Assembly: GCA_965231005.1 (NCBI GenBank) | Contig: OZ246405.1 | Coordinates: forward strand, 365,877-429,876 | From: an uncultured Gammaproteobacteria bacterium | Lineage (GTDB): Bacteria > Patescibacteriota > Patescibacteriia > Magasanikbacterales > UBA922 | Direction of reading: 5' to 3' | DNA length: 64,000 nt | Shown here: positions 1 to 60,417 of the stretch, piece after piece | How positions within the stretch are numbered: position 1 is the stretch's first letter | How the letters are laid out: each line of letters starts with the position of its first letter | Position numbers and translations under genes: made by a program | Notes under the pieces: model-generated | The model's input: only the letters and a program-made list of their open reading frames with translations | The model's database searches: none | Told to the model about the DNA's origin: nothing

Positions 1-85
1 AATATCTAGATTCCAATACATACAAAGAGATTCTTTCACTTACCGAAGAAATATCTAAGATGCTCTGGAAAATCATTAACTAATT

Positions 86-115
86 TGTTAATTGCTAATT
101 GTTAGTTGTTAATTA
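86..115. repeat. Stop-saturated spacer motif family A (TTGTTAATTGCTAATTGTTAGTTGTTAATT), single copy at window start
   Basis: 30-nt A+T motif with TAA/TAG in all six frames. It recurs at 3801-4009, 9963-10140, 21893-22106 and 62066-62096. It sits directly upstream of the G+C-rich operon at 180-1360. Confidence 0.8.
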
Positions 116-122
116 TTAAGGT

Positions 123-157
123 TGACTTTTGTCTCTGTTTAGTGTAAAAAGAACGTA
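123..157 (+). promoter_or_regulatory. Candidate sigma70-like promoter (TTGACT-N17-TAAAAA)
   Basis: TTGACT at 123-128 with a weak -10 about 17 nt downstream. It sits ahead of a GGAGGT RBS and ATG 180. Confidence 0.3.
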
Positions 158-179
158 CAAACGAACCGTGGAGGTCACC

Positions 180-515
180 ATGAGTAGGGAAATTCTTGAG
201 TCAATGCTGGCGCATGCAGAGAAACATGATCTGGGCAAAGACGATCCAGTGTCTCTGCGTCATCGGAAGAATGCACGCACGCTGCGCGTTCTGCTCATCC
301 TGCGTCGCGGAACGGTTTGTTCGAACGTCACGGACCAGATTCGCGTTTTTGCCGAGCGAGGTGATGTGAATGGAGTTCGCATGCTCTGCACAGCGCTCAA
401 GCAAATGCCTTTGACGGGTCGACAGGCAGTCGGGCTCAATGGAATCGGCGTCCGATGCGAGAATGACGAGATCGCAGGAGTGCTGGCCTCAACAGCCGCG
501 CATTTCATCCACTGA
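180..515 (+). CDS. Hypothetical protein (112 aa), first gene of a G+C-rich four-gene operon
   Basis: ATG 180 is preceded by GGAGGT. A longer ORF runs from a TTG at 129. No recognisable domain. Confidence 0.55.
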   Translation: MSREILESMLAHAEKHDLGKDDPVSLRHRKNARTLRVLLILRRGTVCSNVTDQIRVFAERGDVNGVRMLCTALKQMPLTGRQAVGLNGIGVRCENDEIAGVLASTAAHFIH

Positions 516-527
516 GGAGGTAGGATC

Positions 528-851
528 ATGAACATTCCTGCTATGGTCGAGCGCTTTGAGGCGTTGTGTAGTTCCAAAACGACCTGGACTGAGTTCAATC
601 AAGGTCGGCTTGCAGAGCTCATGACGCTGGTGACTGGTGAGATCGATCGACGGATCAACTATGCACAAGTGTACGAGCTTCACAGTCGTACCAGCCAGCT
701 GGTCGACAACGTTTCGCCTCGGCAGCGGGACGAATTCCGTACAATGGTCGAGAAGGTTGCTGCGCGCCTAGAGTTGCTTGGTTCAAAATCAACAGCACCC
801 TCTGCCAATGGATGGACAGGGGACAATCCAGAAATGGGAGATCGAAAATGA
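528..851 (+). CDS. Hypothetical protein (107 aa)
   Basis: GAGGAGG RBS precedes ATG 528. It lies 13 nt after the previous stop. No recognisable domain. Confidence 0.6.
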   Translation: MNIPAMVERFEALCSSKTTWTEFNQGRLAELMTLVTGEIDRRINYAQVYELHSRTSQLVDNVSPRQRDEFRTMVEKVAARLELLGSKSTAPSANGWTGDNPEMGDRK

Positions 852-1117
852 GTGGAAACGGTATTGTCGCTGTTGACAGCGAAGAATTGGATCCAGGACT
901 CAGTGAGGTGGTGGCGTTTACTGGAAAGGTGAACGACCTTGACCCTGGCTTTGCTCTGGTTGAGCTGTTCCTTGTTGTGGATGGCACGGCTGATCGATTC
1001 ATGTGTGATCTAAGAGGCGATGAATCCGGTCAACAACAGTTTCGACAGATTCAACACGGAGATTTCGTCAGGATTCAGGTGCTCCGTTCTGAGCCTGAGT
1101 CAGACGCAAAGGAGTAA
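848..1117 (+). CDS. Hypothetical small beta-rich protein (89 aa), paralog of the next gene
   Basis: Internal ATG 848 has a GGAGA RBS and overlaps the upstream stop in an ATGA arrangement. The G.V.D..G...L...GD..I..L pattern is shared with the 1121-1360 product. Confidence 0.5.
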   Translation: MSGNGIVAVDSEELDPGLSEVVAFTGKVNDLDPGFALVELFLVVDGTADRFMCDLRGDESGQQQFRQIQHGDFVRIQVLRSEPESDAKE

Positions 1118-1120
1118 GAC

Positions 1121-1360
1121 ATGATCAACGATAACTCCACTGACAAAGAGGATCCACCGGACGAACGATTTGTCCCGGTCGTTTCAACTATTGGGATGGT
1201 CGAAGATGTCCATAGTGGAATGATGACCCTCCGGATGTCGCAGTCTGGTGATGAACCGTATTTCGAATGCGATGTTGGAGCTGATCACATTGCTGGGGTA
1301 GAAATCAAAGCTGGTGACATCTTCAGTATCGTGATTTTGCGTGAGCGCGAAGGTGATTAA
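1121..1360 (+). CDS. Hypothetical small beta-rich protein (79 aa), paralog of the previous gene
   Basis: AAGGAG RBS. Starts 3 nt after the previous stop. Confidence 0.55.
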   Translation: MINDNSTDKEDPPDERFVPVVSTIGMVEDVHSGMMTLRMSQSGDEPYFECDVGADHIAGVEIKAGDIFSIVILREREGD

Positions 1361-1399
1361 GGAGGACTATGGTGCAGGGTAAAAACGAACAGGAGTGAG

Positions 1400-1445
1400 G
1401 TCGGGTTTCTTGCGGGAAGTCCGACTCTTTTTTTATTTTTTTTAA
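1400..1445 (+). terminator. Rho-independent terminator
   Basis: Imperfect GTCGGGTTTC/GAAGTCCGAC hairpin followed by a long T-run, directly after the operon. Confidence 0.6.
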
Positions 1446-1483
1446 GATGTTAATATATGTATATTGACTATTAATTTTTTTTT

Positions 1484-2170
1484 ATGAACAGACTCAAATC
1501 ACTTACTTTTATTTTTGCCTGTCTTATTCTTGTTGGTGCTGGATGCTCGACTCAAGAATCTACTTTACCAGCAGATACATCAAGTTCAGACTCAAATCAA
1601 CCATCTATTGCGGTTGGAGAGCCAAATCCAAATATCCCAGAAAAGAAAGTTGAACAACCGGCTGAGCCAGTAAACCACCCGGAGGGTGACCAGCCTTCGG
1701 CTGGGAAAACAGAAGTTGTTCTTGAAAAGAAAGAAGTAAGTCAGCCACAGGCAGAGCCAGCGCCGGTTGAGAAAAAGGATAAATCATCTACATTTGCATT
1801 TTCAGGAAACAAATTAGCTGGGAATACAGTTCCATTTATTGACTACAACAAGGCTGACTATGAAAAAGCATTAAAAGAAAATAAGACAGTCTTATTGTAT
1901 TTTTATGCAACATGGTGTCCACTTTGTATTGCAGAACTGAGACATACTCATGCGTTTTTTGATGAAGTTACAGACACAAATCTTGTTGGTTTCCGTGTTA
2001 ACTTTAATGATGGAGATACAGATAAAGATGAAAAAGCACTTGCGCAAAAATATGGTGTTGCATATCAGCACACAAAAGTTATTCTTAAGGATGGTCAGCG
2101 TGTATTAAAGCGACCAGATACGTGGAAGAAAGATCGGTATCACGACGAAGTTGATAAAATTCTTCAATAG
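1484..2170 (+). CDS. Thioredoxin-like (TlpA/ResA-type) lipoprotein
   Basis: Signal peptide with a LVGAGC lipobox. WCPLC thioredoxin motif (YFYATWCPLCIAEL). Confidence 0.75.
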   Translation: MNRLKSLTFIFACLILVGAGCSTQESTLPADTSSSDSNQPSIAVGEPNPNIPEKKVEQPAEPVNHPEGDQPSAGKTEVVLEKKEVSQPQAEPAPVEKKDKSSTFAFSGNKLAGNTVPFIDYNKADYEKALKENKTVLLYFYATWCPLCIAELRHTHAFFDEVTDTNLVGFRVNFNDGDTDKDEKALAQKYGVAYQHTKVILKDGQRVLKRPDTWKKDRYHDEVDKILQ

Positions 2171-2176
2171 TTATAT

Positions 2177-2431
2177 ATGGAATCAGTGGAACTTATAGGT
2201 TTTATGGCGGGTACTTTTGGTGCGATCTCGCTGTTACCACAAGTGCTAAAATCCTGGAAAACAAAATCTACAAAAGACATTGCGATCTCTTGGACATTGA
2301 TAAGTTTGTGTGGTCAAGTTCTCTGGATGACGTATGGTTACTATATTCAAAGTGTTTCTTTGGTTGTCATGAGTAGCATTACACTTGCTATGGTAGTCTC
2401 GTTAGTTATTTTAAAATTAAAGTTTGGCTAA
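2177..2431 (+). CDS. SemiSWEET (PQ-loop) sugar transporter, 84 aa
   Basis: Three TM helices with an LLPQVLKSWKTKSTKDIS PQ-loop motif. Close in size and sequence to known bacterial SemiSWEETs. Confidence 0.8.
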   Translation: MESVELIGFMAGTFGAISLLPQVLKSWKTKSTKDIAISWTLISLCGQVLWMTYGYYIQSVSLVVMSSITLAMVVSLVILKLKFG

Positions 2432-2504
2432 TAACTATTTCAGCCAAAGGCTGACCACCCTTCGGGTGGAAATATTAAATTATAGATAATAAATATTATT
2501 CCGT

Positions 2505-3209
2505 ATGCAAGAAGGTACACTTTTATTTTCATTTATTGCAGGGATTGTTTCATTTCTTTCTCCTTGCGTTCTTCCTATTATTCCAGGATATTTATCATAT
2601 CTTGCAGGAACATCTGCAGATGGAAAGCCTGCATCAAGAAAGGAAATTTTCATTACCAGTATTTTTTTCGTACTTGGATTCTCAGCATTGTTTTCCCTTG
2701 TCGGTGTTCTGTTAAATTCTGCTCTTGAAGCATTTGCGTATGATGCACAGGTTTGGCTGTCACGAGTAGGTGGAATTATTGTGATATTTTTTGGATTGTA
2801 TTTAACAGGATTATTTAAGATTGGTTTTTTGCAACGTGAACACAGACTTCGAATTACACATCATTTTAAATCAAAAAAATTAGCAGCATTTATTTTTGGT
2901 GCAGCTTTTGCTATTGGTTGGAGTCCATGTGTTGGTGCGGTCCTTGGTGGGATTCTTGCACTTGCTGCAACACAGCCAGGAATTGCATTTAGTCTATTAC
3001 TCAGTTATTCCATCGGGTTTGGAATGCCCTTTCTTCTTGTTGGTGCGTTCACAAGTCAGGCTGCAAATATTATCAATAAATACGCTCGTATTCTCAAATA
3101 CATAAATATTCTTTTTGGACTTCTTTTGGTCGGTCTTGGTATTCTCATATTTACGCAAACGCTCAGTCAATACGCGTCTTTTGAAGTTTTGGAAAGCCTC
3201 TTATATTAA
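2505..3209 (+). CDS. ccdA: Cytochrome c-type biogenesis / thiol-disulfide transporter CcdA (DsbD family)
   Basis: LSPCVLPIIPGYLSYLAG motif and a second conserved Cys (WSPCVGAV). Polytopic membrane protein. Confidence 0.85.
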   Translation: MQEGTLLFSFIAGIVSFLSPCVLPIIPGYLSYLAGTSADGKPASRKEIFITSIFFVLGFSALFSLVGVLLNSALEAFAYDAQVWLSRVGGIIVIFFGLYLTGLFKIGFLQREHRLRITHHFKSKKLAAFIFGAAFAIGWSPCVGAVLGGILALAATQPGIAFSLLLSYSIGFGMPFLLVGAFTSQAANIINKYARILKYINILFGLLLVGLGILIFTQTLSQYASFEVLESLLY

Positions 3210-3307
3210 TTGTCATCTCGAGCGATCAGAGCGAGCCTGCCTGCCGGCAGGCAGGTCGAGAGATCTCTCCACTTCACTCGCTCCTCTCGCTCCGGTCGAG
3301 ATGACAA
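3210..3307. repeat. Palindromic element with CCTGCCTGCCGGCAGGCAGG core (copy 1)
   Basis: Perfect 20-nt palindrome at 3236-3255 inside a longer inverted repeat (TTGTCATCTCGAG ... TCGAGATGACAA). Confidence 0.8.
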
Positions 3308-3375
3308 ATGATACTTTATTGTATTGACTTTCTTTCTCTTTTGTGTAAGACTGTTATTAACAAAGGGGGTACACA

Positions 3376-3510
3376 ATGCACCGATTTGGAGCTTTGGCAG
3401 AGATCGCAAGATTCCTGAATACATCCAAGCGAGTCGCGTTTGGGATTGCTGTGGGAGTAGCAATGTTAGTATTTGCTTTCGGCTTTTACTTTGGCAAACC
3501 TGGCTAGGAG
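3376..3510 (+). CDS. Small hydrophobic protein (44 aa)
   Basis: AAGGGGG RBS 7 nt upstream of ATG 3376. One predicted TM helix. Below the 60-aa cut-off of the ORF track. Confidence 0.4.
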
Positions 3511-3516
3511 GTACGC

Positions 3517-3717
3517 ATGCAATGGGATCATGATTGGATGATCTATACGTACGGAACGATCTGGCTTGTGGTCCTTGCTATTATCTTTTATTCTGACCTG
3601 GTTCCAAACGCTGCTGCTACTCAACCAACCCAACCACAGATCACTGTTCCAGCTGACTCAAAAGATCTTCCCGGAAGATGGGTTTCAATCAAACACGAAG
3701 TTGAGCCTGTGGCATAA
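3517..3717 (+). CDS. Small membrane protein (66 aa)
   Basis: AGGAGG RBS. N-terminal TM helix (WLVVLAIIFY). Confidence 0.45.
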   Translation: MQWDHDWMIYTYGTIWLVVLAIIFYSDLVPNAAATQPTQPQITVPADSKDLPGRWVSIKHEVEPVA

Positions 3718-3800
3718 TGGTGTATTCAAAAACACCCGCCACAACACATGGTATGAACTGTCGTATTATGTGTTGATGTGGGTGTTTTTTGTGTTCAAGG

Positions 3801-4009
3801 AACAATTAACAAATAACAATTAACAACTTAGTATAGATTACTGTGAAGATTCGCATGTTCTATAGATATTACATACGATTTTTAACTTATCATTCGTTCG
3901 TTATAAAGATTCTATATATTAGATAATAAATAATAAATTTTAGAACCATCCTTATTTTTTAGAAACTTTCTATACGAGTTTGTTAATTGCTAATTGTTAG
4001 TTGTTAATT
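3801..4009. repeat. Family A stop-saturated motif, inverted pair around an A+T-rich spacer
   Basis: Reverse-orientation copy at 3801-3830 and forward copy at 3980-4009. It lies at the junction between the mid-GC cassette and nth. Confidence 0.8.
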
Positions 4010-9433: not shown

Positions 9434-9470
9434 AATCTGGCTCACGCAACAACGAATAAAAGGGGGAAAT

Positions 9471-9905
9471 ATGATCATTTTTCACCACTCCAATTCAAGT
9501 GTTAGAAGAATGGTTCTGAGAAATCTGGTTCGGAATCATGAGGGGCGAGCAGGTGTTGAGCCGGGTCAGTATGACATCCATGTTGCCGAAACAGAAGAGG
9601 AAGCTCTTGAGCTGGTTGAGCAAGGAATGCACACTGAAGCAACCACGATTCTCATTTCCAATCATCAGTCACGGAATAATCAACTCAGAAGTAAGGTGAA
9701 GAGCCTCGACACCGCTTGCATCACGATTGCCTTCTCCGCGATCCGTGTGCCTGCAGACGAGCGGCCATTCACTGACCTGGGCTTCAATGGGGACCCCACG
9801 GAGCAAATCGGTCTACTCGTCGGCTTCATGCTGCGTTTCCACTCAACAACGTCCACAGCACTCGAGTTGGAAGGGGAATATTCCTGGATTGTGGCAGTCA
9901 AATAG
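9471..9905 (+). CDS. Hypothetical protein (144 aa) with a pseudo-receiver-like N-terminal fold pattern
   Basis: AAGGGGG RBS. The beta-alpha periodicity (IIFHH ... DIHVAETEEEALELVEQ ... TTILIS) resembles a REC domain that lacks the phospho-acceptor Asp. Confidence 0.45.
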   Translation: MIIFHHSNSSVRRMVLRNLVRNHEGRAGVEPGQYDIHVAETEEEALELVEQGMHTEATTILISNHQSRNNQLRSKVKSLDTACITIAFSAIRVPADERPFTDLGFNGDPTEQIGLLVGFMLRFHSTTSTALELEGEYSWIVAVK

Positions 9906-9962
9906 TCTCGGACAAAGGGAGGTTCCTTGCGTGTTCATATCTATGCGCACGCAAGGATATGA

Positions 9963-10140
9963 ACAACTAAAAAAATTAACAACTAACAATTAACAACTAA
10001 CAATTAACAAGTTTTGATAAAATAATCCAATCTAATACCTTGAACAACATTGAGTGTTATAGTAATTCATTGAAGTACTCCTACAAATAAATAAACATTC
10101 TCTACTAAGTTGTTAATTGCTAATTGTTATTTGTTATTTA
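9963..10140. repeat. Family A stop-saturated motif, inverted pair around a spacer
   Basis: Reverse copy at 9963-10010 and forward diverged copy at 10110-10140. Confidence 0.8.
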
Positions 10141-18180: not shown

Positions 18181-18206
18181 AACCCGGCCTTTTGGCCGGG
18201 TTTTTG
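18181..18206 (+). terminator. Rho-independent terminator
   Basis: AACCCGGCC-TTTT-GGCCGGGTT hairpin followed by a T-run. Confidence 0.75.
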
Positions 18207-18305
18207 TTACGACTCTTTATTATTCTTTTGCAAAAAATAGTAAAGAGTCGCCCACCGTCTTTCGTTGGTAGGCGACGGTGGAAGGCCTATGTCTGCGAGT
18301 TGCTT

Positions 18306-18665
18306 TTATGACAACAATCTGGGGAGAAAATCGCGAAGCTCAGGTTTCTCGCTTACGTGCGTGCAGCCTCTTTGCAGCTGTTGTGCACGTACCTCAGAAT
18401 CAGACGACACTCCGATGATGGGACCTGAGAACTTGACCACGTCGAGGAGATGACGAAGCAGTGCAAATGATTCATCTGTTTCTTCGCCGATGTACCCGTC
18501 CAGGACAACTGCCCAGGGAGGTTTTGGCAATGAACGCAGAATCGCACGTGCTTCTTCATATCCAGCAACGAAGACCGGTTCAAAGTCCTTTCCGAGTGCG
18601 ATCCTCAGAAGTGCGAGCCAGCGGTCTTCATCTTCGAGGATCAGGATGGTTGGTTTGTCTTGCAT
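18306..18665 (-). CDS. Stand-alone response-regulator receiver (CheY-like REC) protein
   Basis: ILILEDED acidic pocket, VVLDGYIG phospho-acceptor Asp, GVSSD and a SEKP Lys-Pro motif. The start lies 2 nt after the upstream stop. Confidence 0.65.
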   Translation of the reverse strand: MQDKPTILILEDEDRWLALLRIALGKDFEPVFVAGYEEARAILRSLPKPPWAVVLDGYIGEETDESFALLRHLLDVVKFSGPIIGVSSDSEVRAQQLQRGCTHVSEKPELRDFLPRLLS

Positions 18666-18667
18666 CT

Positions 18668-19288
18668 CTACTTCTCGACCGTGTACGGGAAGGCCCAGTA
18701 CTTCGGAACCTTGAGATCCATGGAGAGGTTGCTCGTCATGTGGATGCCGAACTTGCCATCCGTTGGGTTGAAGCTGATGTGTGGCATTTTCCCGCATTCG
18801 AGCTGTTCGTGAAGCGCGTAGAGCCGGGTCTTCTTTGGATCCAGTCCGGTCTTCTTTTGTGCGTCGTCCGTCCGCCAGGTGTACTGGTAGAAGCTGAGCA
18901 GCGCAGAGAAGTTGAGCGGCTTGCCCTTCTTGTACGCGATGTACTCGGCGACCTGCTTCAGCGTGGTCGTTGAGTTATTGGTTGTGTAGATCTTCACGTC
19001 CTTGATCGATCCGTGTTTTTCGGAGAAACAGCCGCCTTGCAGTTGCTTGTAGAATCCATCCCAGTGCGACAGGTCGAGTGCTTCGATGCGCTCAAGCAGA
19101 GCCAGGCCGTTAGTGTGCTTGGGCACGTCGGTCTTGGCGGTCGTGTCCTTGCTCACGGACGCGTCAGCATGGGAGCCGGCGTCGGAGTTGGTGAGCAGGT
19201 TGTCGTCCAGTGTCGGGCAGTCGTCAGCGCAGCCAGTGCTGGTGATCAAGAACATGGCAAGGAAAATCGCGGTTGCAAAGTGTTTCAT
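18668..19288 (-). CDS. Lipoprotein, function unknown
   Basis: Signal peptide plus ITSTGC lipobox. AAGGGGG RBS. Confidence 0.55.
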   Translation of the reverse strand: MKHFATAIFLAMFLITSTGCADDCPTLDDNLLTNSDAGSHADASVSKDTTAKTDVPKHTNGLALLERIEALDLSHWDGFYKQLQGGCFSEKHGSIKDVKIYTTNNSTTTLKQVAEYIAYKKGKPLNFSALLSFYQYTWRTDDAQKKTGLDPKKTRLYALHEQLECGKMPHISFNPTDGKFGIHMTSNLSMDLKVPKYWAFPYTVEK

Positions 19289-19409
19289 GGTATACCCCCT
19301 TAGGTCACTGCACGGTTGGTTAAAAGTCGGTTGTTGAAAGTCCGTGCGGTGTCTACAAGGGGCTATGGTTAAAAGAGCGTGTACTTATTATATCGAAATA
19401 AGATAGCTA

Positions 19410-19438
19410 ACAATAGCAAAATATCAATTTTTTGTCAA
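19410..19438 (-). promoter_or_regulatory. Sigma70-like promoter TTGACA-N17-TATTGT (minus strand)
   Basis: Sits within a roughly 130-bp module that is duplicated at 20340-20480. Confidence 0.5.
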
Positions 19439-19569
19439 GGCTTAGATATAAAATCAAAAAAACACCTAATTTAAGATGTTTTTTTGAACCATCCCCCGAG
19501 CATCACACATCAGCATTATCCCTAGGGGATGGTGTTGCGTGTGTCGGAGGGTGAACTCCTTGGTTGTTG

Positions 19570-20301
19570 TCAGTGCAGCGGTTCGATGGTGAACCATTCG
19601 CTGTCGTGTTTGTCCAGCACGATCTCCATCTCTGTGCCGACCTTGTCCCAGCTGTTCTCGTGATCTCGGAACAAAACCTGCACTGGAACAACGTCCTTGT
19701 ACAAAGGCGTGGTGTGCAGGCGAATGACCGCAGGACCTCCCACGGTGTACATGCTGAACTCCAGCTTGCCGCCGCAGATGACCTCTCCGATCGCCATGGG
19801 CTTGCCGTTGCAGGCATCGACCGGGTAGCTGTTGACCTTGCCAGAGCGGGCGCTCAGGGTGACGTTCTTCGGGCAGGTGATGAACACGTTGCCCATTGCC
19901 ATCCAGAGCTCGCGCTCGTTCTTCGGATCGGTGTTGTTTTGCATCAGGTGGCAGGTCTTGTAGGTCGGTTCGGAGTCGATCTTGGTGCTTGTCGCCTGCT
20001 CCTTGTCAGTGCACGGCGATGTGCTGCCGAGGTTGACGTGCTGGTCGCTGGCGCAGCCGCCCATGAACAGGGTAACTACGATGCCAGCGGCGACCGCAGT
20101 CCGACCGATCGGCGCAGCTGATTGCTTCTTCTCCAACCGGTTCAGCTTGACCAAGATGAGCGACAGGCCCACCGAGATTTCGAGCAAGAAAACGAAAATT
20201 AGCAGCATTGTGATATTTCCGCTCCTCTGTAGTTCAAATACGGTGAACCCACCAGCAAACAAGATAAGAAAAAAATGCGATATAGAAAGGATTCGTTCCA
20301 T
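19570..20301 (-). CDS. Membrane-anchored protein with two N-terminal TM helices, function unknown
   Basis: AAGGGGG RBS. TM segments followed by a Cys-containing extracytoplasmic domain. Confidence 0.55.
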   Translation of the reverse strand: MERILSISHFFLILFAGGFTVFELQRSGNITMLLIFVFLLEISVGLSLILVKLNRLEKKQSAAPIGRTAVAAGIVVTLFMGGCASDQHVNLGSTSPCTDKEQATSTKIDSEPTYKTCHLMQNNTDPKNERELWMAMGNVFITCPKNVTLSARSGKVNSYPVDACNGKPMAIGEVICGGKLEFSMYTVGGPAVIRLHTTPLYKDVVPVQVLFRDHENSWDKVGTEMEIVLDKHDSEWFTIEPLH

Positions 20302-20399
20302 GTTGTACCCCCTTGAATGAGCGCGCCAGGGTGACGCGGTCGGTCCAAGGGGTTACAACAAAAAGAACATACTTCTATTATACGAAATAGAAACAGCTA

Positions 20400-20428
20400 A
20401 ATATAGCAAAATGTTAATGTTTTGTCAA
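20400..20428 (-). promoter_or_regulatory. Sigma70-like promoter TTGACA-N17-TATATT (minus strand), duplicate of the 19410-19438 module
   Basis: About 80 percent identical by eye to the 19357-19500 region. Confidence 0.5.
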
Positions 20429-20556
20429 GGGTAAGGTATAAAATCAAAAAAACACCTATTTTAAGATACCTATAAAAAAGCATAAACCCCGCAACGCGAT
20501 GTCACGAGGCTATGCCTTGTGCGCGTGCGGGGTGGTTGACTTGTGTCGTCTCCTTG

Positions 20557-21741
20557 TTATTTTGGTTCGATGCTCAGCTTCACCATTCTCATCAAGCATC
20601 TGGTCTTGCCTGCCCATTTGCAGTTCGCTTTGACCGGAAGGATGATACGTCCCTTTTTGGCAGAGACAAGGTCTGCTGTTACAGAACCGTTTGAATGGTC
20701 TCGAATTGTCCCATTCCAATTTTCGTAGTGTCGGCAAGTACCGCTGCTACCACAGTTTGATCCGAGTTTAACTGTCACAAAGCGTGGTGCGTACTTGTTT
20801 GTTCCTTCCACATCCATCCGAAACGAAAGAGTTGTGGTGATGTTTGTGGGGAATTTTCCAAGTCCAGGACAGCGAATGTTTGGGACTCTCCTATCTGCTC
20901 CGCCAGCTGGAAATTGGATGTCAGGGATTTTCATGTTTTTGCATCCAACAGCTTCCGGGACTTTTACTGCCGGCAGTGTGAGTAGGTAGTTCCCTTTGTA
21001 GGAAGTGATGAACCGGATTTGTGCTTGTGGAGCAATCACATCGCCAGGCTTCCACCCTCGTGCAGGTTTGGAATTGATCGTTCGTTTGCAGATCATCTTT
21101 CGGGCAGTTGTGTGCGAGAGCGAGAGCGGAGGCTTTCCTGGATCTGTTGCATTTTTGAGCTCTCCTTTGCATGTCATGTTGCTCAGCTCCCGCCTTTTGA
21201 TTTGATGCAATTTGCAATCTTTGTATGGAAATCTGATCACACAGTAAGCACTGATCACCAGTTCAGACAAGATTGACTCTCCTGCAACAGGAGATGTACT
21301 TTGACCACTTGCCTCGATGATTGCACCATGTTTTTTTTCTGCACGGACGCATTTTTTCCATGCATCGGTCACATGTGGAGGAAGATATCTCCTTTCTACC
21401 ATGAGCTTTCCAATGTCAGTGGTCCTTCTTCGTGCAGCTTCACACATGATCTTTGCAACAGATTCGTAGTTGGAGCGTTTCGACGACTGACTTCCGCCAA
21501 TGTCTGCGTAGTGGAGTTGTGCCTTTCTGTCTGACCAGCTGTCCCTGATTCGTGTGTATTTCTTGCATTGTTTTTGGTACCATGCAAGGCTCTTGTTCCA
21601 GGCGCTATTGTTGACTTGAGTGCTTGCACCGTAGATCAGGATTTTTTCGCAGTGATCAGGTGGGCTTGCAACTGCGGGTGATCCGAACAAGAGTGACATG
21701 CTCGCAATGAACATGAAGATCCGAGACAAAAAAAATCGCAC
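20557..21741 (-). CDS. Secreted cysteine-rich protein (394 aa), function unknown
   Basis: GTG start preceded by GGAGGA. N-terminal signal peptide and more than 20 Cys residues. Confidence 0.5.
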   Translation of the reverse strand: MRFFLSRIFMFIASMSLLFGSPAVASPPDHCEKILIYGASTQVNNSAWNKSLAWYQKQCKKYTRIRDSWSDRKAQLHYADIGGSQSSKRSNYESVAKIMCEAARRRTTDIGKLMVERRYLPPHVTDAWKKCVRAEKKHGAIIEASGQSTSPVAGESILSELVISAYCVIRFPYKDCKLHQIKRRELSNMTCKGELKNATDPGKPPLSLSHTTARKMICKRTINSKPARGWKPGDVIAPQAQIRFITSYKGNYLLTLPAVKVPEAVGCKNMKIPDIQFPAGGADRRVPNIRCPGLGKFPTNITTTLSFRMDVEGTNKYAPRFVTVKLGSNCGSSGTCRHYENWNGTIRDHSNGSVTADLVSAKKGRIILPVKANCKWAGKTRCLMRMVKLSIEPK

Positions 21742-21787
21742 TGTGTCCTCCGTGCTGAAATGGATGGGATTGTGGTGAAACCATTTG

Positions 21788-21876
21788 GCTTCACTCGCGG
21801 AGAGAGCGGGATTTGAACCCGCGAGCCCTTTGCAGGACTACTGCTTTTCGAAAGCAGCGCATTCAACCAGACTCTG
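21788..21876 (-). tRNA. tRNA-Ser (anticodon CGA)
   Basis: Hand-folded cloverleaf: GGAGAGA acceptor, CTGCT/AGCAG anticodon stem with loop TTCGAAA, long variable arm, GCGGG-TTCAAAT-CCCGC T-arm. Confidence 0.8.
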
Positions 21877-21892
21877 CCATCTCTCCATAATG

Positions 21893-22106
21893 ACAATTAG
21901 CAATTAACAAAAAACAATTAACAATTTTTTCATCACGACAAACAATATTTTCAGCTTTTAGATGTCGCAGATAACTATCTTTGGTGAAGAAATACAACCG
22001 CCAGCAGTATCAGGATTCGTTCATTATCTTTTTGTAAGATTAAGTAACGGAATAAGAGTTTGTTAGTTGTTAATTGTTAGTTGTTAGTTGTTAGTTTTCT
22101 ATCAAT
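21893..22106. repeat. Family A stop-saturated motif, inverted pair around a spacer
   Basis: Reverse copy at 21893-21924 and forward tandemised copy at 22069-22106. Confidence 0.8.
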
Positions 22107-23465: not shown

Positions 23466-23879
23466 TCAGTGGAGGGATTGTTCTTCTCTTTCGACAAATG
23501 CGTCTGCATGATCTGGCGTCCAAAGCATTGCTTCTTCACCTTTCAGTGTGTAGACAAGTGCTTCTGGCCACCTTCTCATTGCTGCGGTTGCCATCTCAGC
23601 TAGACCTGGTTTGGCACCAGGATTGGACCATTCGCGAGGTGTAATCAAGCGTTCTCTGGCAAGTCGGTGTCGTTCTTCTTTGGGCATGAATACATACTCT
23701 TTGTTGTATCCGCAGCCCTTTGCTGTTCTCGTGTAGATTTCGACTTGGAGTCTGCCAAACATCATGTGTTCATCAAAAATGACGACGAGTTTGACCCAAG
23801 GATGCTCTCGGTCGTAGCGTGAGTACGTGTGCAAAAAAATTGAAGCTTCAATCACCTTGCGTTCGTTTACTGTTGGCAT
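23466..23879 (-). CDS. Hypothetical protein (137 aa) in a G+C-richer cassette
   Basis: GGAGG RBS. An AAAGGGGG motif sits in the leader. Confidence 0.45.
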   Translation of the reverse strand: MPTVNERKVIEASIFLHTYSRYDREHPWVKLVVIFDEHMMFGRLQVEIYTRTAKGCGYNKEYVFMPKEERHRLARERLITPREWSNPGAKPGLAEMATAAMRRWPEALVYTLKGEEAMLWTPDHADAFVEREEQSLH

Positions 23880-23961: not shown

Positions 23962-25458
23962 TCAAACCTTAAGTTTTAGCACACTTTTAAGCGTCTCTTT
24001 TGAAATCGCGCCAGTTAAAATAACCATGATTCCATAAATTCCTGCACCAAGAATTGCAAGTGCAATAACATGAAGATTTGGAAGAAGTAATACAATTACT
24101 GCCATAACAATGGCAGAGAAAAATAATTTAAATAATGTTCTATAATCAAGAATTTCGTTTGTGTAATGTCGTATAACAAGAAAGAGAAAGAGTCCTGCAT
24201 AGACTTCTGAGAAAACTGTTACCCATGCTGCTCCATACATACCAAATTTTGGAATGAAAATGAGATAGGCAATTAAAGAAAGAATTGCATTTGAAATGTA
24301 GACCCACATGGTTTGTTTTTGTTTATCAATTGCAACAGCTGTGTGTCCAAATATTGCGCCAAAGAATACGCCAAATACTGCAAGCGACAAAATTTGGAGT
24401 GGTCTTCCTGCGGCAATAAATTCATTACCAGCAACAAAGGCGATAATTGGTTCTGCAAGAATGATTGTTCCAATTGTGACAGGAATTGCAAACAACATCA
24501 TTGCATCAAACGCTTGCTGATATTGTTGTTTAAATTGTTTTTTATTGTTTCGTGACCACGCAAATGCAAGCAGAGGCAAAATAACTCCCATCATCATCAT
24601 GGCTGTTTGACCGAGGATGTCTATGACACGATAGGCTGCACCGTACAGTCCAACTTCTTCAAATTTTTGAAACCATGAAAGCAAAATAACATCACCACGC
24701 AAATACACAACATTGAAAATAATTGAAATAGCAATTGGCCAGGATTTTTGCATAATTGATTTCCAAATGTGCCAGTCAAATGCAAAGCGAATTTTCGTTG
24801 TTCGTGATGCAGCAGCCCACATGAAGAGCACATATCCAATGCTCGAGAGTCCAACAACAATCATGACTGGAACAAATCCATATTGACCTGTAATCATGAG
24901 CCATAATCCTGCAACAAGAATAATTCTTCCAATAACTTCTCCTGCTGCTTGAACATGCATTTGTAATCTTGTTTGGTAATAGCCAACAAACACTTGGTTC
25001 ATTGCTATTGCAAGAAATGAAATGGTCAAAAGTGCAATTGCATGTTTCACTTCAATAGGATAGGGAAAGAACAGTGCAACCAGTGGCGCTAGTGTAAGGA
25101 AAAATGTTGCGGTTACAAATCGGAATCCTAATAAATTTTTTAACAGTGTTTCTTTATTATATTTTTGCTCGCTCAACATTTGTGCAGTGACTGGTGTCAT
25201 TCCAAAGTCAATCAAAATACCAATAAACTGCAAAAAAGAAATTGCTGTAATATACCATCCAAATTGAGATACACCTAAGTATCTTGTCATCATGCCAATA
25301 GCAATTAAACCAAAAATAGTTGAGATTGCTTTCCCAACGATTTGAATGGCTGTATTGTGTGCGACTTTTCTTGTTGATTCCACAGTTTTTACATTAAAAA
25401 AATAGAACACAGATTTAACGCCTGCCTGCCGGCAGGCAGGGATCAGACGGATTTTCAC
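23962..25458 (-). CDS. Polysaccharide biosynthesis flippase (MOP/Wzx-like)
   Basis: 498 aa with about 14 TM helices. Confidence 0.55.
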   Translation of the reverse strand: MKIRLIPACRQAGVKSVFYFFNVKTVESTRKVAHNTAIQIVGKAISTIFGLIAIGMMTRYLGVSQFGWYITAISFLQFIGILIDFGMTPVTAQMLSEQKYNKETLLKNLLGFRFVTATFFLTLAPLVALFFPYPIEVKHAIALLTISFLAIAMNQVFVGYYQTRLQMHVQAAGEVIGRIILVAGLWLMITGQYGFVPVMIVVGLSSIGYVLFMWAAASRTTKIRFAFDWHIWKSIMQKSWPIAISIIFNVVYLRGDVILLSWFQKFEEVGLYGAAYRVIDILGQTAMMMMGVILPLLAFAWSRNNKKQFKQQYQQAFDAMMLFAIPVTIGTIILAEPIIAFVAGNEFIAAGRPLQILSLAVFGVFFGAIFGHTAVAIDKQKQTMWVYISNAILSLIAYLIFIPKFGMYGAAWVTVFSEVYAGLFLFLVIRHYTNEILDYRTLFKLFFSAIVMAVIVLLLPNLHVIALAILGAGIYGIMVILTGAISKETLKSVLKLKV

Positions 25459-25600: not shown

Positions 25601-27487
25601 ATGAAAGTAACAATGCAAACAACAAGAAGCTTTGTAAGGTTTTGTGCCCTTTCATTTTTTGCATTTGCATTATTCTTTTTTTCATCAGCTCCTGTAGACG
25701 CAAAAAAGCCAGAAGCAAAGGTAAGAGATGACTCATATACTGCGCGGTATGTTTCTCAGACAGAAAAGGATCCAATTTCTATTGAAGCTGGTTCAACAAA
25801 AACAGTAACAATTACTTTTAGAAATAATGGAACGGCTACGTGGAATAATACAGGTAGTCGTTATATTTCTGCATACACAATGGAACCGCGATATCGTGAT
25901 TCTGAATTTAAAGGACCGAACTGGATTGGTGCAAATCAGACAGGGAAAATGGGAGGCGTTATAAAACCTGGAGAGAATGGAAAACTTGCTGTCACACTCA
26001 CTGCTCCAGAAAAAGTTGGCAAGTACACTGAATGGTTTTACCTTGCTGCAGAAAATTATACGTGGGTAAAAGATGGTTATTTCTTTTTAGAACTTAATGT
26101 TATACCAAAGAAAGAAGTTCCAAAAGTAAAAGTTGCTGCAACTGACAATGCTCCATTGGCTGAACAAGCTGCTGAAGAAAAAAAGGAGATTGTATACGCT
26201 GCAAATAATATTGGACAAAATGTTCGTGAAGTTTATGTAAAAGGTGGGGAACAAATTCGACTTATTACACTATTTCAAAATATAGGAGATACTGCTTGGG
26301 AAGAATATGGCATTCTTGCAAATACACCTGTCTCAACAAGTGATTCTCGGCTTTCTTTTGCAGATCAATCATGGCATGACACAGATTTAGTTTTAACAAA
26401 GAGAAAAGTAGTTGAACCTGAACGATCACTAAGAGAAGAATTTTATTTTCGTGCGCCAGCCAAAGAAGGTGACTACACAGCAAGATTTTCTTTGACTGCA
26501 AACACTGTAGACGTTCCAGATGTTTCTGCAGAAGTTGTTGTTCATGTAACACAAGATGCTCCAAGTGATTATAAAAAAGCAACATTCTATGCAGCACCAG
26601 AGCCAGAAGAAGCAGTTCGTCTTGATAGTGAACCAAGAATCCGCGTTGGCATGATGCTTCCAATGGAATTTGTTCAATTCCGAAGTGAAGAAGAGGATTA
26701 TCGTGTGATTGTTGGAGGAGAAGAATTAGGTATTTTGCCGAAAACACATTTAGGAGTGTTTATATTTGATGGGACATATCATTCATTCAAAGGTGCAGAG
26801 GTTGATTATGAAGGTCCAGGATATGTTCGACTTGAACCTGTAAATAATGTTCATGCAATTTATTCATTATCAAACTACGAGCGGTACGTGAAATGGAAAG
26901 GACCAAATAATTTTAATATGTACAGAGGTGCATTTGAATATCGAAAAGGAAAGGTAGATGGTAAGATGTATGCTGTAAATGATTTATTGTTTGAAGATTA
27001 TGTTGCTGGAATTGCTGAGACGAGTAATTTGGCTAATATTGATTATATAAAAGCTCTTCTTGTTGCAGCGCGATCATATGCATATAAAGCAATAGGGAAG
27101 TATCCATTCTTCGATGTTCTTGGAAATACCTATGATCAATTATATCTTGGATATGAAAGTGAACGGCTCATGCAGCGCGTGCTACAGGCACAACAGGAAA
27201 CACGTGGGTACATGGTTACATACGATGGAGAAATTGTGACAACACCATATTTTGCAAATAGCACTGGCATGACAAAAAGTTGGAAACAAGTATGGGGTGG
27301 AAGAAAATCATATCCATGGCTTGTGCCGGTTGAAGCAAAGTATGATCGTGGTCAACCAATGCGAGGTCATGGAGTTGGTATGAGTGCGCGAGATGCTGCA
27401 ATTCGTGCTGACAAAGAGGGAGCTACGTGGCAAGAACTTTTGAAACATTATTATACTGGTGTTGAAGTCGAAAAAATTTATAATTAA
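25601..27487 (+). CDS. SpoIID/LytB-domain protein
   Basis: C-terminal YFANSTGMT...GHGVGMSARDA block typical of SpoIID/LytB. N-terminal signal/TM plus repeat domains. Confidence 0.75.
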   Translation: MKVTMQTTRSFVRFCALSFFAFALFFFSSAPVDAKKPEAKVRDDSYTARYVSQTEKDPISIEAGSTKTVTITFRNNGTATWNNTGSRYISAYTMEPRYRDSEFKGPNWIGANQTGKMGGVIKPGENGKLAVTLTAPEKVGKYTEWFYLAAENYTWVKDGYFFLELNVIPKKEVPKVKVAATDNAPLAEQAAEEKKEIVYAANNIGQNVREVYVKGGEQIRLITLFQNIGDTAWEEYGILANTPVSTSDSRLSFADQSWHDTDLVLTKRKVVEPERSLREEFYFRAPAKEGDYTARFSLTANTVDVPDVSAEVVVHVTQDAPSDYKKATFYAAPEPEEAVRLDSEPRIRVGMMLPMEFVQFRSEEEDYRVIVGGEELGILPKTHLGVFIFDGTYHSFKGAEVDYEGPGYVRLEPVNNVHAIYSLSNYERYVKWKGPNNFNMYRGAFEYRKGKVDGKMYAVNDLLFEDYVAGIAETSNLANIDYIKALLVAARSYAYKAIGKYPFFDVLGNTYDQLYLGYESERLMQRVLQAQQETRGYMVTYDGEIVTTPYFANSTGMTKSWKQVWGGRKSYPWLVPVEAKYDRGQPMRGHGVGMSARDAAIRADKEGATWQELLKHYYTGVEVEKIYN

Positions 27488-27600
27488 TAGAACACGGATT
27501 GAACACCTGCCTGCCGGCAGGCAGGGATGTAACGGATTTTTACGGATCTAATCTGTTTAGATCCGTTTAATCCGTTGGATCTGTGTTCTATTCAGTACTA
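27488..27600. repeat. Palindromic element (core CCTGCCTGCCGGCAGGCAGG) with TAGAACACGGAT/ATCTGTGTTCTA inverted ends
   Basis: Core at 27506-27525. Homologous to 25403-25506. Begins immediately after the SpoIID-like stop codon. Confidence 0.75.
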
Positions 27601-43777: not shown

Positions 43778-43952
43778 AAGCAGTTCCTTACAAAGCTCAG
43801 AGGAGCCGCCATTATTGTATTTGTCCAAGTACAATTATTGCGGTTTCTCTGTCATAAACGCAAGACAGCAGAAAAACGTAAGTCCCAAACCCCAACCCAA
43901 AACCCAGACAAGGACAATCAGCGACCACCTGGTTGCTACAGAGGAGGCAGCA

Positions 43953-45824
43953 ATGAAGATTTCCTACACGAAAGCCCTGCTCAGTCTCATGGTGGTCGCG
44001 TGCTTCACGGCATGTTCCACCACGGATGAGCCGGTCAACAGCGACACCAAGGCCGACGGGTCTGCGCTGGACGGAAGTTCGTCTGACGCAGGTTCGAGCG
44101 AAGACGTTCCCAAAGACATCGGAAGTCCTGATGTTGGCAAGGACACGGCCGAACCGGTCGACGCCAATCTCGGGCCGTGCCACGGCAAGAAGAACGGCGA
44201 CGAGTGCGACGACAGCAACCCCTGCACCACCGACGACGTTTGCACCGATGGCACCTGCGAGGGTGACGCGGTCAAGTGCGACGATGGCAACACCTGCACC
44301 AAGGATACGTGCAACAAGAAAGGCAAGTGCGAAGTGTCCTACCCGGACGACCTGAAGTGCGAGGACGGCAACAAGTGCACCATCGGTGACACATGTCAGG
44401 CCGGCAGCTGCATTGCAGGCAAGAAGAAGGAATGTTCGGAAGACGGCAACAAGTGCATCAAGTGGCAGTGCTTCCCGACCGAAGGATGCAAGTCCGAGAT
44501 CAAGGAAAACTTCTCGTGCGATGACAGCAACACCTGCACCAAGGATGACAAGTGCGACAGCGAGGGCAAGTGCAAGGGCGGAGGTCTGATCAACTGCAGT
44601 GATGGCAACCCGTGTTCCATCAACACCTGCGATTCCAAGACCGGATGTACTGGTACGCCCAAGGCTGGTCCTTGTGACGATAACAACCCGTGCACGGAGA
44701 ACGACTACTGCAAGGATCAGCAGTGCTTCGCTGGCAAGCTCAAGATCTGCAACGACAGCAAGCCTTGCACTGACGACCAGTGCAACTTGAACGACGGGAC
44801 ATGTTCGTACACGCCGGGTTCAGGCTCCTCGTGCAACGACAACAACTCGTGCACGACCAAGGACACCTGCAACAACGGCAAGTGCGAAGGCGTCAACGAC
44901 TTCAAGTACTGCAATGACGGCAATTCGTGTACGGAGCAAGACAGTTGCATCGGAGGAAAGTGCGTTGGCAAGACCAAGCAGTGCAATGACCAGAACCCCT
45001 GCACCAAGGATTCGTGCAAGCAGACCGGAACTGGTTGTACCTACGAGCATCTGAAGGGCGATCCGTGCGAAGACGGCATCCTGTGCACCATTGGTGAGCT
45101 TTGCTCCAAGGGTAAGTGCATCGGCGGCAAGGAGAAGAACTGTGACGATGGCAACATGTGCACCAAGGACTCGTGCGATAGCAACACGGGCAAGTGCGCG
45201 AATGACAAGGATCCTATCAAGGGTAAGGACTGCAACGATGGTAACAAGTGTACCGAAAAGGACTCGTGCATAGATGGCACTTGCAAAGGTGATGCACTCA
45301 ACTGTGAAGACGGTAAGGTCTGCACAGATCAAAGTTGCAATCCAGCCAAGGGCTGTGTCTTTACCAGCAAGAATGGGGCGAAGTGCGACGACAAGAATGC
45401 TTGTACGGACACGAGCGTCTGCAAGGGGACGGTCTGCGTTCCCTTGAAGATCACTCAGTGTCCGAACGGTACCAAGTGCAAGCCGAACATCTGCAATCCA
45501 AAGACTGGCCTGTGCGAGCTCAAGGAAAAGAACTGCGACGACAGCAACTTCTGTACGAAGGACTACTGCGATGCCAAGTTCGGTGTGTGCAAACATGTCG
45601 CTCACAAAAACGGCAGTACATGCAGCGATAACGACATCTGTACTCAGGGTGATGTGTGCAACAGCGGGAAGTGTATTGGCAACCCGCCGACCAAATGGTG
45701 CAAGGATGACAACAAGTGCACCAGCGATGCCTGCAACTCGCAGACCGGGGTGTGCGAGTTTACGTGCTTGGTTCCCAAGGTAAACGGCGTTTGTCCGCTG
45801 AACGACCCGATCGCCTGCAAGTAG
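43953..45824 (+). CDS. Cysteine-rich-repeat lipoprotein (about 25 tandem C-x-D-x-N-x-C-T-x-D-x-C modules)
   Basis: GAGGAGG RBS. Signal peptide with Cys lipobox (VVACFTAC). G+C-rich. Repeats resemble the myxobacterial-type Cys-rich repeat, with DGN/DSN-CT cores. Confidence 0.7.
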   Translation: MKISYTKALLSLMVVACFTACSTTDEPVNSDTKADGSALDGSSSDAGSSEDVPKDIGSPDVGKDTAEPVDANLGPCHGKKNGDECDDSNPCTTDDVCTDGTCEGDAVKCDDGNTCTKDTCNKKGKCEVSYPDDLKCEDGNKCTIGDTCQAGSCIAGKKKECSEDGNKCIKWQCFPTEGCKSEIKENFSCDDSNTCTKDDKCDSEGKCKGGGLINCSDGNPCSINTCDSKTGCTGTPKAGPCDDNNPCTENDYCKDQQCFAGKLKICNDSKPCTDDQCNLNDGTCSYTPGSGSSCNDNNSCTTKDTCNNGKCEGVNDFKYCNDGNSCTEQDSCIGGKCVGKTKQCNDQNPCTKDSCKQTGTGCTYEHLKGDPCEDGILCTIGELCSKGKCIGGKEKNCDDGNMCTKDSCDSNTGKCANDKDPIKGKDCNDGNKCTEKDSCIDGTCKGDALNCEDGKVCTDQSCNPAKGCVFTSKNGAKCDDKNACTDTSVCKGTVCVPLKITQCPNGTKCKPNICNPKTGLCELKEKNCDDSNFCTKDYCDAKFGVCKHVAHKNGSTCSDNDICTQGDVCNSGKCIGNPPTKWCKDDNKCTSDACNSQTGVCEFTCLVPKVNGVCPLNDPIACK

Positions 45825-58998: not shown

Positions 58999-59121
58999 AA
59001 AAGTAAAAAACCTTACTGTCATTGCGAGGAGCGAATGTGAATGAGTGACGAAGCAATCTCCTGGGCATACATTAATTCTTCTTGTTCTTTTTGTAACCAA
59101 AAAGAACCAAAAAGTTTCGAG

Positions 59122-59290
59122 GGTGGCAGATGCGCTTCTTATATCTGTATAACACTCCCTTTTATCCGCTCGGCCTCTTTCGATCGTCTCGACGAGAGTC
59201 AACTTCCAAAAATACATCGAGTGGAACAGGACTCAACTTTAGAGGCCTCGCTCGGCGCGCCTGCCTGCCGGCAGGCAGGCTGCCACCCCA
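59122..59290. repeat. Long-range inverted repeat (GGGTGGCAG ... CTGCCACCC) enclosing a CCTGCCTGCCGGCAGGCAGG core at 59260-59279
   Basis: Sixth copy of the palindromic core. Nearby GTCATTGCGAGGAGCGA / TCTCGACGAGAGTCAAC segments resemble the flanks of the 3210-3307 copy. Confidence 0.6.
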
Positions 59291-59378
59291 AACCCCAAAG
59301 TTCCAACACTGTTTATTATCTATGCTTTTGACTAAGCTTGATTTTTTTGTCTTAGTATGGTTTAATTGTTCCGATTAC

Positions 59379-59460
59379 GGGGGTGTGGTGAAATTGGTAT
59401 ACACGGCAGCCTTAGGAGCTGTTGCCGCGAGGCGTGAGAGTTCGAGTCTCTCCACCCCCA
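59379..59460 (+). tRNA. tRNA-Leu (anticodon TAG)
   Basis: Hand-folded: GGGGGTG/CACCCCC acceptor, GCAGC-CTTAGGA-GCTGT anticodon arm, 13-nt variable arm, GAGAG-TTCGAGT-CTCTC T-arm. Confidence 0.75.
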
Positions 59461-59486
59461 CTGCTACGCTCAAGCAAAGCTTGAGC

Positions 59487-59543
59487 TTCGCAGTGCAGGC
59501 ACTGCATGTCGCTCTACAAGATTGGAGCTTCGCAGTGCAAGCA
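59487..59543. repeat. Direct repeat GAGCTTCGCAGTGCA(G/A)GCAC x2 plus a GCTCAAGC-AAA-GCTTGAGC hairpin just 3' of tRNA-Leu
   Basis: Two 20-nt copies 16 nt apart. Possible att-like or terminator structure. Confidence 0.5.
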
Positions 59544-59603
59544 CAAATTTGATTTCTTTATATAAGTGCGTTCATTTTGGAAGCGCATTTATTGGAGGAG
59601 ATC

Positions 59604-60221: not shown

Positions 60222-60336
60222 TCCCGAACTACACATCAACCTGGCGATTGTCTCAAAACCTTCGCCGCAAGGAGAATGTTCGGGGACTATCGAAAACACA
60301 TCTCAATGAGGTGTTTTTTTGATGTTAAAAAAAGAT

Positions 60337-60417
60337 TAGAAATTAGAAATTGGAAATTCGGGATTTTTCAAAAAAATGGTTTGTTATGTCCCTAATTTCT
60401 AATTTCCAGTTTCTAAT
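60337..60417. repeat. Family B inverted-repeat spacer
   Basis: AGAAATTAGAAATTGGAAATTCGGGA ... CCCTAATTTCTAATTTCCAGTTTCT. Confidence 0.7.

Follow-up and report, generated by a model that had tools for sequence, protein, structure and literature searches.

What is the four-gene operon that occupies positions 122-1445 of the plus strand in a 64,000-nucleotide stretch of Patescibacteria DNA (contig OZ246405.1 of assembly GCA_965231005.1, positions 365,877 to 429,876; hereafter the window, meaning the whole stretch), and how does a set of small genes whose products resemble no known protein come to sit among conserved genes? Here, we propose that the operon is a real, lineage-restricted accessory cassette in a variable slot whose cargo is horizontally exchanged, with its first gene product, P1, as the core of the locus and the other three, P2 to P4, as add-ons. 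We give this reading a probability of roughly 0.55. It draws on the signals within the operon, on the isolation of its products from known protein families, and above all on what related genomes carry in the same place.

A compact transcription unit of four genes

The region 122-1445 comprises a promoter, four small open reading frames (ORFs) each led by a Shine-Dalgarno (SD) site, and an intrinsic terminator, all on a single strand. The promoter, a sigma-70-type pattern match at 122-150, has a -35 element TTGACT (122-127), a 17-nt spacer, and a TG ahead of the -10 element TAAAAA (145-150). By itself a TTGACT-type pattern occurs at close to the chance rate (3 in the window versus 2.2 expected); the core of this one, AAG(G/A)TTGAC together with a -10 of the form TA(A/T)AA, is kept in two related genomes, represented below by the contigs L004 and L008, where its position is unchanged. 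P1 (180-515; 111 amino acids, 112 codons if the stop is counted) follows a leader of some 25 nt that contains GGAGG at 170-174. P2 (528-851; 107 amino acids) is preceded by GAGGAGG, which overlaps the P1 stop codon, P3 (848-1117; 89 amino acids) by GGGAG, with its start overlapping the P2 stop in the sequence ATGA, and P4 (1121-1360; 79 amino acids) by AAGGAG, so that the three junctions measure +12, -4 and +3 nt. Within the terminator (1399-1445), a scan places a 12-pair stem at 1399-1426 and a T run after it; the T run and the ATGTTAATATA flank that comes after it are conserved in L004. G+C content is 0.48-0.61 from about position 150 to 1430 and 0.25-0.37 on both flanks. An earlier note on this DNA had described four small ORFs with strong ribosome-binding sites and tight junctions, bounded by one promoter-like site and one terminator and richer in G+C than their surroundings, and each of these features is present, apart from the stop codon having been counted in the length of P1. 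Taken together, these signals mark 122-1445 as one autonomous transcription unit whose ORFs are predicted to be translationally coupled.

The ORFs have the properties of coding sequence. All four begin with ATG and together tile 98.5% of 180-1360, whereas coverage of at least 90% was reached in 0 of 5000 first-order Markov simulations. Each ORF is free of stops in its own frame, against 3-9 stops in the other two frames of the same strand, and in all four the G+C content is highest at the first codon position, intermediate at the third (GC3) and lowest at the second. GC3 of the operon is 0.47-0.57, as compared with 0.20-0.28 in core genes of the window. The minus strand also has ORFs of 112-115 amino acids. 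A scan of window positions 1-1500 against Rfam returned no match, and the segment between P4 and the terminator folds no better than shuffled sequences. An assembly artefact can be set aside, because independent assemblies of two samples (contigs L001-L003 and L012) contain both junctions of the operon; L001-L003 match the window at 100% identity, and in L012 the stretch compared has one single-nucleotide polymorphism. That lone A/C difference, at window position 577 in the ERR2281800 assembly (L012), changes P2 by K17T and lies close to the end and start of two contigs of the sample (window 599-613).

Between P4 and the terminator lies a nine-codon mini-ORF, MVQGKNEQE (1369-1398), that is preceded by a perfect AAGGAGG (1359-1365) and whose end abuts the foot of the terminator stem. 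A fifth gene, since lost, may have left it behind.

Four orphan products, two of them paralogs

P1 to P4 are small soluble-type proteins with no signal peptide and no hydrophobic segment. P1 is basic (isoelectric point, pI, 9.4) and mostly helical according to a low-confidence model; P2 is helical with a disordered tail in its predicted model; P3 and P4 are strongly acidic, each with a pI of 4.2 and a net charge of about -12. Profile scans against Pfam, NCBIfam, PHROGs and PADLOC assigned none of the four to a family, and none was matched in the PDB by single-sequence or profile search, or in phage and plasmid records at either the DNA or the protein level. The operon locus was not found among viral contigs or JGI metagenome contigs, the window and the loci compared contain no further paralog of any of the four, and a phmmer search of 1.84 billion representative proteins returned only the proteins themselves. 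Homologs at or below about 30% identity escape a phmmer search of that size, and an orphan is here a protein with no relative above about 45 bits. The profile, sequence and fold searches thus agree with the earlier note in finding no recognizable domain in the four products.

P3 and P4 match one another by BLASTP (E = 2e-4, 30% identity over 60 amino acids) and are 32% identical over a full-length global alignment. Their Smith-Waterman score of 53 compares with 25.9 +/- 4.7 for shuffled sequences, and 0 of 2000 shuffles reach it; for the other pairs among the four products, the score never rises above that of their own shuffles. P3 and P4 also have one invariant cysteine in common, within an F-x-C-D motif. 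On these alignments P3 and P4 are true, distant paralogs, in line with the earlier suggestion that the last two genes are duplicates.

A single-sequence AlphaFold prediction of P3 and P4 together is beta-rich, with five strands at equivalent positions in each half. Foldseek of this model against the PDB gave nothing significant (best E 0.05, TM-score below 0.35, a generic beta-sandwich background), and comparison with BFVD gave nothing at E <= 0.001. In size (about 70-90 amino acids), in the five predicted strands and in a strand of the form G-D-x-[VIF]-x-I-x-[VI]-L near the C-terminus, P3 and P4 recall small beta-barrels of the cold-shock/OB-like and AbrB-like kinds. Both assignments were rejected on comparison of profiles: cold-shock/OB domains gave an hhalign probability of 1.2%, with no Pfam match to PF00313 and no profile similarity including the RNP1 and RNP2 motifs, and AbrB/SpoVT/MazE-type antitoxins gave 0.5%.

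A slot with conserved flanks and variable content

The genome that bears the operon is AT-rich and 1.23 Mb in size. In it, the operon lies between a TRAM/tRNA-U5 methyltransferase gene, which is followed by an IVP/bAvd cassette, and a Trx-PQ-loop-DsbD group of genes. The nearest of these, a gene for a thioredoxin-like lipoprotein (Trx; 1484-2170), has many relatives in Parcubacteria-type genomes, which makes a Patescibacteria/CPR host probable. The two closest relatives (the first represented by contigs L004-L007, the second by L008-L010) have a Trx 52-53% identical to that of the window, and share with it an upstream flank of VKOR, DsbA and methyltransferase genes and a downstream flank of Trx, DsbD, Nth, MacB and MacB genes, continued by ABC, MFP and NUDIX genes in L004 and L009.

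In the first relative, the interval from methyltransferase to Trx in L004 spans 560 bp at a G+C content of about 0.5 and contains no called gene. It opens with a promoter (AAGGTTGACA, 17 nt, TATAAG) and a GGAGG site, and these lead into an ORF of 116 amino acids (L004 9519-9869; product pI 10.4) that is followed by its own hairpin terminator. The product, P0126, matches P1 with a BLASTP E value of 1e-10 and 27% identity over 109 of 111 amino acids, collinearly from end to end. P2, P3 and P4 were not detected in this relative, where the P1 homolog stands alone between promoter and terminator (L004-L007). The sole match to the P1 family in the genome collection belongs to the same species as L004. 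Judged by their alignment and shared position, P1 and P0126 are a new two-member protein family with the same slot and the same promoter core. An orphan GAAGGAG lies 3' of the P1 homolog in L004 too, and may be what is left of a lost downstream gene.

The second relative keeps the slot and fills it otherwise. In L008, the slot starts with AGATTGACA, 17 nt, TATAAC and GGAGG, ends with a hairpin plus terminator, and encloses a segment of G+C content 0.6-0.7 with two closely spaced plus-strand ORFs of 102 and 135 amino acids. P1 is not detectable in L008. The two ORFs are unrelated to P1-P4; a kinship with P1 or P2 was considered and set aside, there being no detectable similarity beyond a common TGDNP, a chance match of five residues. 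The slot is absent from the more distant relatives examined. P1 is therefore common to two of the three genomes compared, and P2-P4 are found only in the genome of the window. Because the content of the slot differs among related genomes, we consider the operon accessory, as the earlier note had supposed; the same comparison shows that the four genes do not recur elsewhere as a conserved cluster, since the phmmer search returned self matches only and the P1 homolog is on its own in the relative. The note itself had named the lack of such a cluster in other genomes as grounds for rejecting its view.

L004 and L008 share a hairpin, CCGAGGTG-N12-14-CACCTCGG (L004 9890-9917; L008 3564-3593), that is absent from the window; with about 40 nt of similar sequence it lies 5' of the slot terminator. 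A SAM-II riboswitch was tried for the L004 copy and treated as a chance hit, with 23 bits against a gathering score of 44 and no counterpart in L008. Gene callers deal poorly with these slots: in none of four related contigs examined did they report the P1 homolog, and at L008 2818-3550 they called a wrong-strand ORF of 153 amino acids and a spurious 145-amino-acid N-terminal extension of the methyltransferase.

An accessory cassette with P1 as its proposed core

The relatives keep the slot's promoter core and its downstream flank, while the G+C-rich coding content between them differs. We propose that cargo is gained, lost or replaced at this site by horizontal exchange, for which recombination through the conserved flanks would be the simplest route. 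P1 would be the ancestral core of the locus, and its charge and helicity lead us to guess at a small nucleic-acid-binding or regulatory protein. P2-P4 would be lineage-specific add-ons, probably protein partners; among them, P3 and P4 would have arisen by local duplication, and the acidic pair may form a hetero-oligomer. At this level of description the operon is an orphan accessory islet, of a kind already known.

Several points weigh against this proposal. The roles suggested for P1 and for P2-P4 are weakly held, their basis being charge, predicted secondary structure and conservation pattern alone. The structural models add little, since the prediction for P3 and P4 is not reproducible (a mean predicted local distance difference test, pLDDT, of 69.9 in one of five models and 29-43 in the others) and that for P1 and P2 is unusable (pLDDT 43.7). 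A horizontal origin is suggested only by composition and patchy presence, and at the locus we found no donor, no integrase, no att-like or boundary repeats and no mobile-element gene. The presence of P1 at the same slot in a genome whose Trx is only 52% identical would also fit a long vertical residence, although such a residence leaves the high G+C content unexplained in a genome whose core GC3 is about 0.22. Finally, the orphan status of the products has its limits: genes of the P1-P4 type are under-represented in protein databases because gene callers miss or miscall them, and even P0126, which is present in the protein collection, went unreported by the phmmer search, its 41 bits lying below the library-wide threshold.

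Alternative explanations

The alternative that survives best, though we regard it as unlikely, is that the locus is native, vertically inherited and fast-evolving, with P1 a His/Cys redox- or metal-sensing regulator of the flanking VKOR-DsbA and Trx-DsbD operons and P2-P4 its lineage-specific accessories. Two species retain P1 at a common slot and behind a common promoter core, and each of the three related genomes has that slot between its VKOR-DsbA and Trx-DsbD genes. P1 itself is basic and helical, the 30 positions invariant between P1 and its homolog include H12, H16, C70 and H108, and P3 and P4 have their one invariant cysteine. Set against this, P1 resembles no regulator family, CsoR-type and HTH proteins included, at E <= 10, and L008 has the slot with no detectable P1. 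The enrichment of His and Cys at invariant sites is not significant and comes from two sequences only, and a GC3 of 0.47-0.57 beside core values of 0.20-0.28 is hard to square with long residence under AT bias. We therefore treat a link between the operon and the neighbouring thiol-disulfide genes as a possible lead only.

A toxin-antitoxin (TA) or anti-phage module, in which a basic effector P1 would be restrained by the acidic P3 and P4 and the whole kept as an addictive or protective unit, is in our estimation improbable. In its favour, and in part as in type II TA operons, the genes are small and translationally coupled, one product is basic and two are strongly acidic, the distribution is accessory and patchy, and the locus is equipped with a promoter and a terminator of its own. 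The likeness ends there. The operon has four genes rather than two, and P1, its sole conserved gene, occurs alone in a related species (L004-L007), which would be unexpected for a toxin that needs its cognate antidote; nor is the cluster a conserved unit among the 1.84 billion representatives searched. P1-P4 contain no type II toxin domain (PIN, RelE/ParE, MazF, HipA, Doc, GNAT or HicA) in Pfam, NCBIfam or PADLOC at E <= 1, no antitoxin DNA-binding fold (RHH, AbrB/SpoVT, HTH or Phd/YefM) in Pfam, and no family among the defence models of PADLOC-DB 2.0 at E <= 1, and the 0.5% hhalign probability for AbrB/MazE-type domains argues in the same direction for P3 and P4. The solitary P1 homolog and the lack of any toxin or antitoxin domain lead us to disfavour the TA reading, and P1-P4 are probably not a TA system. 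The earlier note had expected a toxin-antitoxin, defence or regulatory complex; searches of PADLOC, Pfam, NCBIfam, PHROGs, the PDB and predicted folds came back empty for all of these, and nothing but the architecture speaks for defence.

It is less probable again that the operon is a moron-like unit left behind by a decayed phage or mobile element, with no present role in the cell. Morons, in the sense of Hendrix and colleagues, are autonomous extra transcription units in lambdoid prophages, and of the systems we compared the operon most resembles these. Like a moron it is short, has its own promoter and terminator, deviates in composition and is patchily distributed (P2-P4 are absent from both relatives and P1 from one), and it sits, apparently dispensable, where relatives have two genes next or almost next to each other. 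Its orphan small proteins would be typical of phage dark matter, and the mini-ORF with its perfect ribosome-binding site at the terminator looks like a truncated further gene. Unlike a moron, however, it lies in the chromosome, in a slot flanked by housekeeping genes, and not within a phage or prophage. Searches at the DNA and protein level found no relative in phages, plasmids or viral contigs, no PHROG matches, and no integrase, att-like repeat or structural gene lies nearby; the promoter core is a conserved part of the slot and was not brought by the insert, and all four ORFs are intact with their coupling preserved.

An integron cassette array likewise has small, mostly orphan genes of deviant G+C content behind a fixed upstream promoter, with content varying between relatives. 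The attC recombination sites that separate integron cassettes are imperfect inverted repeats of about 57-141 nt. Junctions of -4 to +12 nt leave no room for such sites, each ORF of the operon has its own SD site and the unit its own terminator, and no IntI-type integrase was called in the 10 kb upstream (L012) or in the first kilobases of the window, where the genes called near the operon are VKOR, DsbA, methyltransferase, IVP/bAvd, Trx and DsbD. With neither space for attC nor an integrase, we reject an integron array. Finally, the idea that the ORFs are not genes, being chance frames in G+C-rich DNA, structured RNA or an assembly chimera, gains something from the scarcity of stop codons in such DNA, the minus-strand ORFs and the lack of homologs for P2-P4, and is practically ruled out by the one-strand tiling, the four correctly spaced SD sites with ATG starts, the codon-position pattern of G+C, the collinear protein-level homolog of P1, the paralogy of P3 and P4, the absence of an Rfam match at E <= 1 and the agreement of independent assemblies.

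A class of G+C-rich, SD-led genes across the window

The accessory cassette that we favour is not alone in its composition. A uniform scan of the window found SD sites before 14 of 20 ORFs with GC3 >= 0.40 and before 2 of the 39 others (Fisher p = 2.7e-7). About 18% of the window consists of the G+C-rich ORFs; where these lie in G+C-rich patches, they have GGAGG-like sites and a GC3 of 0.44-0.80, in contrast to the AT-rich core genes, whose GC3 is 0.20-0.28 and which lack SD sites. Several core genes have a TATAAT-like box a few bases 5' of the ATG, which suggests that they are leaderless or have very short leaders. By these sequence features, the operon belongs to a class of G+C-rich, SD-led accessory genes that are scattered through the window among AT-rich core genes.

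Other members resemble the operon. Eight of the ten other island proteins lack a Pfam domain, the exceptions being a pentapeptide-repeat protein and a phosphoglucomutase-type enzyme, and the islands have no paralog family in common. On the minus strand, the promoter (GGTTGACTTTT) and leader (GGAGG-N5-ATG) of the island at 23466-23879 closely resemble those of the operon. On the plus strand, 9471-9905 is an SD-led, G+C-rich orphan gene of 144 amino acids with its own terminator, inserted between a MacB-type permease gene and an ABC ATPase gene that lie 10 bp apart in L004. Small ORFs that are SD-led and G+C-richer also lie between DsbD and Nth, in the window as well as in L004.

Such cases raise a broader idea: that these genomes have fixed expression slots, each a conserved sigma-70 promoter and a terminator flank, into which G+C-rich, SD-led orphan cassettes are swapped without a recognizable integrase, and that P1-P4 are one loaded slot encoding a new small-protein complex for conflict or host interaction. 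We consider this a speculative and rather doubtful extension of our proposal.

Further features of the window are recorded here. Two larger G+C-rich islands, at 18200-21900 and 59100-62000, abut tRNA genes, tRNA-Ser (21797-21886) and tRNA-Leu (59379-59461), respectively; the first contains four orphan ORFs, one lipoprotein-like, and the second a PGM/PMM-type enzyme. A 669-amino-acid ORF at 43815-45824 (G+C 0.55, GC3 0.74) encodes about 15-25 Cys-rich repeats of roughly 26 amino acids (C-x-D-x-N-x-C-T...). A 132-nt direct repeat with 74% identity (19346-19477 and 20336-20467) is the duplicated promoter and 5' leader (CCTTGACAAAA..., with an AAGGGGG SD site) of two consecutive G+C-rich minus-strand genes. 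A diversity-generating retroelement (DGR) had been considered on account of this repeat and of the bAvd-like neighbour of the operon, and was dropped, since the repeat is a promoter and leader duplication and not a pair of template and variable repeats. The perfect palindrome CCTGCCTGCCGGCAGGCAGG occurs four times (3231-3255, 25416-25440, 27501-27525 and 59255-59279), and two of these copies fall within a 62-nt repeat found where the genes 23962-25458 and 25601-27487 end.

The upstream spacer and the IVP/bAvd cassette

Immediately upstream of the promoter, at 68-114, lies a spacer of AT-rich heptamer repeats termed family A (repeat family D5), which the earlier note had placed directly before the operon. 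The larger context is seen in L012, where the order is methyltransferase, AACAATTAGCAACTAACAATTAACAACTAACAA, a gene for a 113-amino-acid four-helix-bundle protein of the 23S_rRNA_IVP/bAvd type, TTGTTAATTGCTAATTGTTAGTTGTTAATT and then the operon promoter. There, an inverted pair of family A sequences (9452-9485 and 9956-9987) encloses the 23S_rRNA_IVP/bAvd gene. Since the spacer at 68-114 is the right arm of the inverted repeat around that gene, it is a neighbour of the operon and not a part of it: the adjacency that the note reported stands, and the spacer itself belongs to the IVP/bAvd cassette and marks a boundary outside the operon. Both cassette and spacer are missing from the same place in L004.

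Family A consists of tandem 7-mers (TTGTTAA, TTGCTAA and TTGTTAG), each with a stop codon, arranged as inverted pairs. Besides 68-114, copies lie in the window at 3796-3840/3963-4009, 9966-10024/10093-10139, 21894-21938/22043-22089 and 62066-62110. The L012 pair around the IVP gene resembles the stem of an rRNA intervening sequence; the other pairs enclose merely 70-120 bp. The same construction is seen in two further families, B (AATTTCT...) and C (TTATTAG...). Short-read assemblies break at the family repeats, and L001, which spans window positions 85-4008, has both of its ends inside family A.

Implications

A study of horizontal transfer in Patescibacteria reports genomic islands, transferred genes and prophages in the hundreds, together accounting for up to 13% of genome length (PMC12455944); we take this work as general context for the slot described here. 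In the literature, we found no mention of the project PRJEB17505 and no paper that joins Patescibacteria, leaderless and Shine-Dalgarno.

Taken by itself, the operon adds four hypothetical proteins to a type of genome in which these abound. Its wider meaning lies in the comparison: at one well-resolved site, three relatives have different cargo behind a constant promoter and between constant flanks, a pattern that points to fast turnover of small accessory genes in reduced genomes. The orphan status of such genes in protein databases is in part an artefact, since gene callers pass over or miscall G+C-rich small genes of this class. Were the idea of fixed expression slots to hold, accessory genes would be initiated in an SD-led manner, unlike the SD-less core genes around them. 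If the split in SD usage and GC3 that we see across the window extends genome-wide, it would offer an easy way to recognize the accessory genes of these bacteria, and may indicate that they are under separate translational control.

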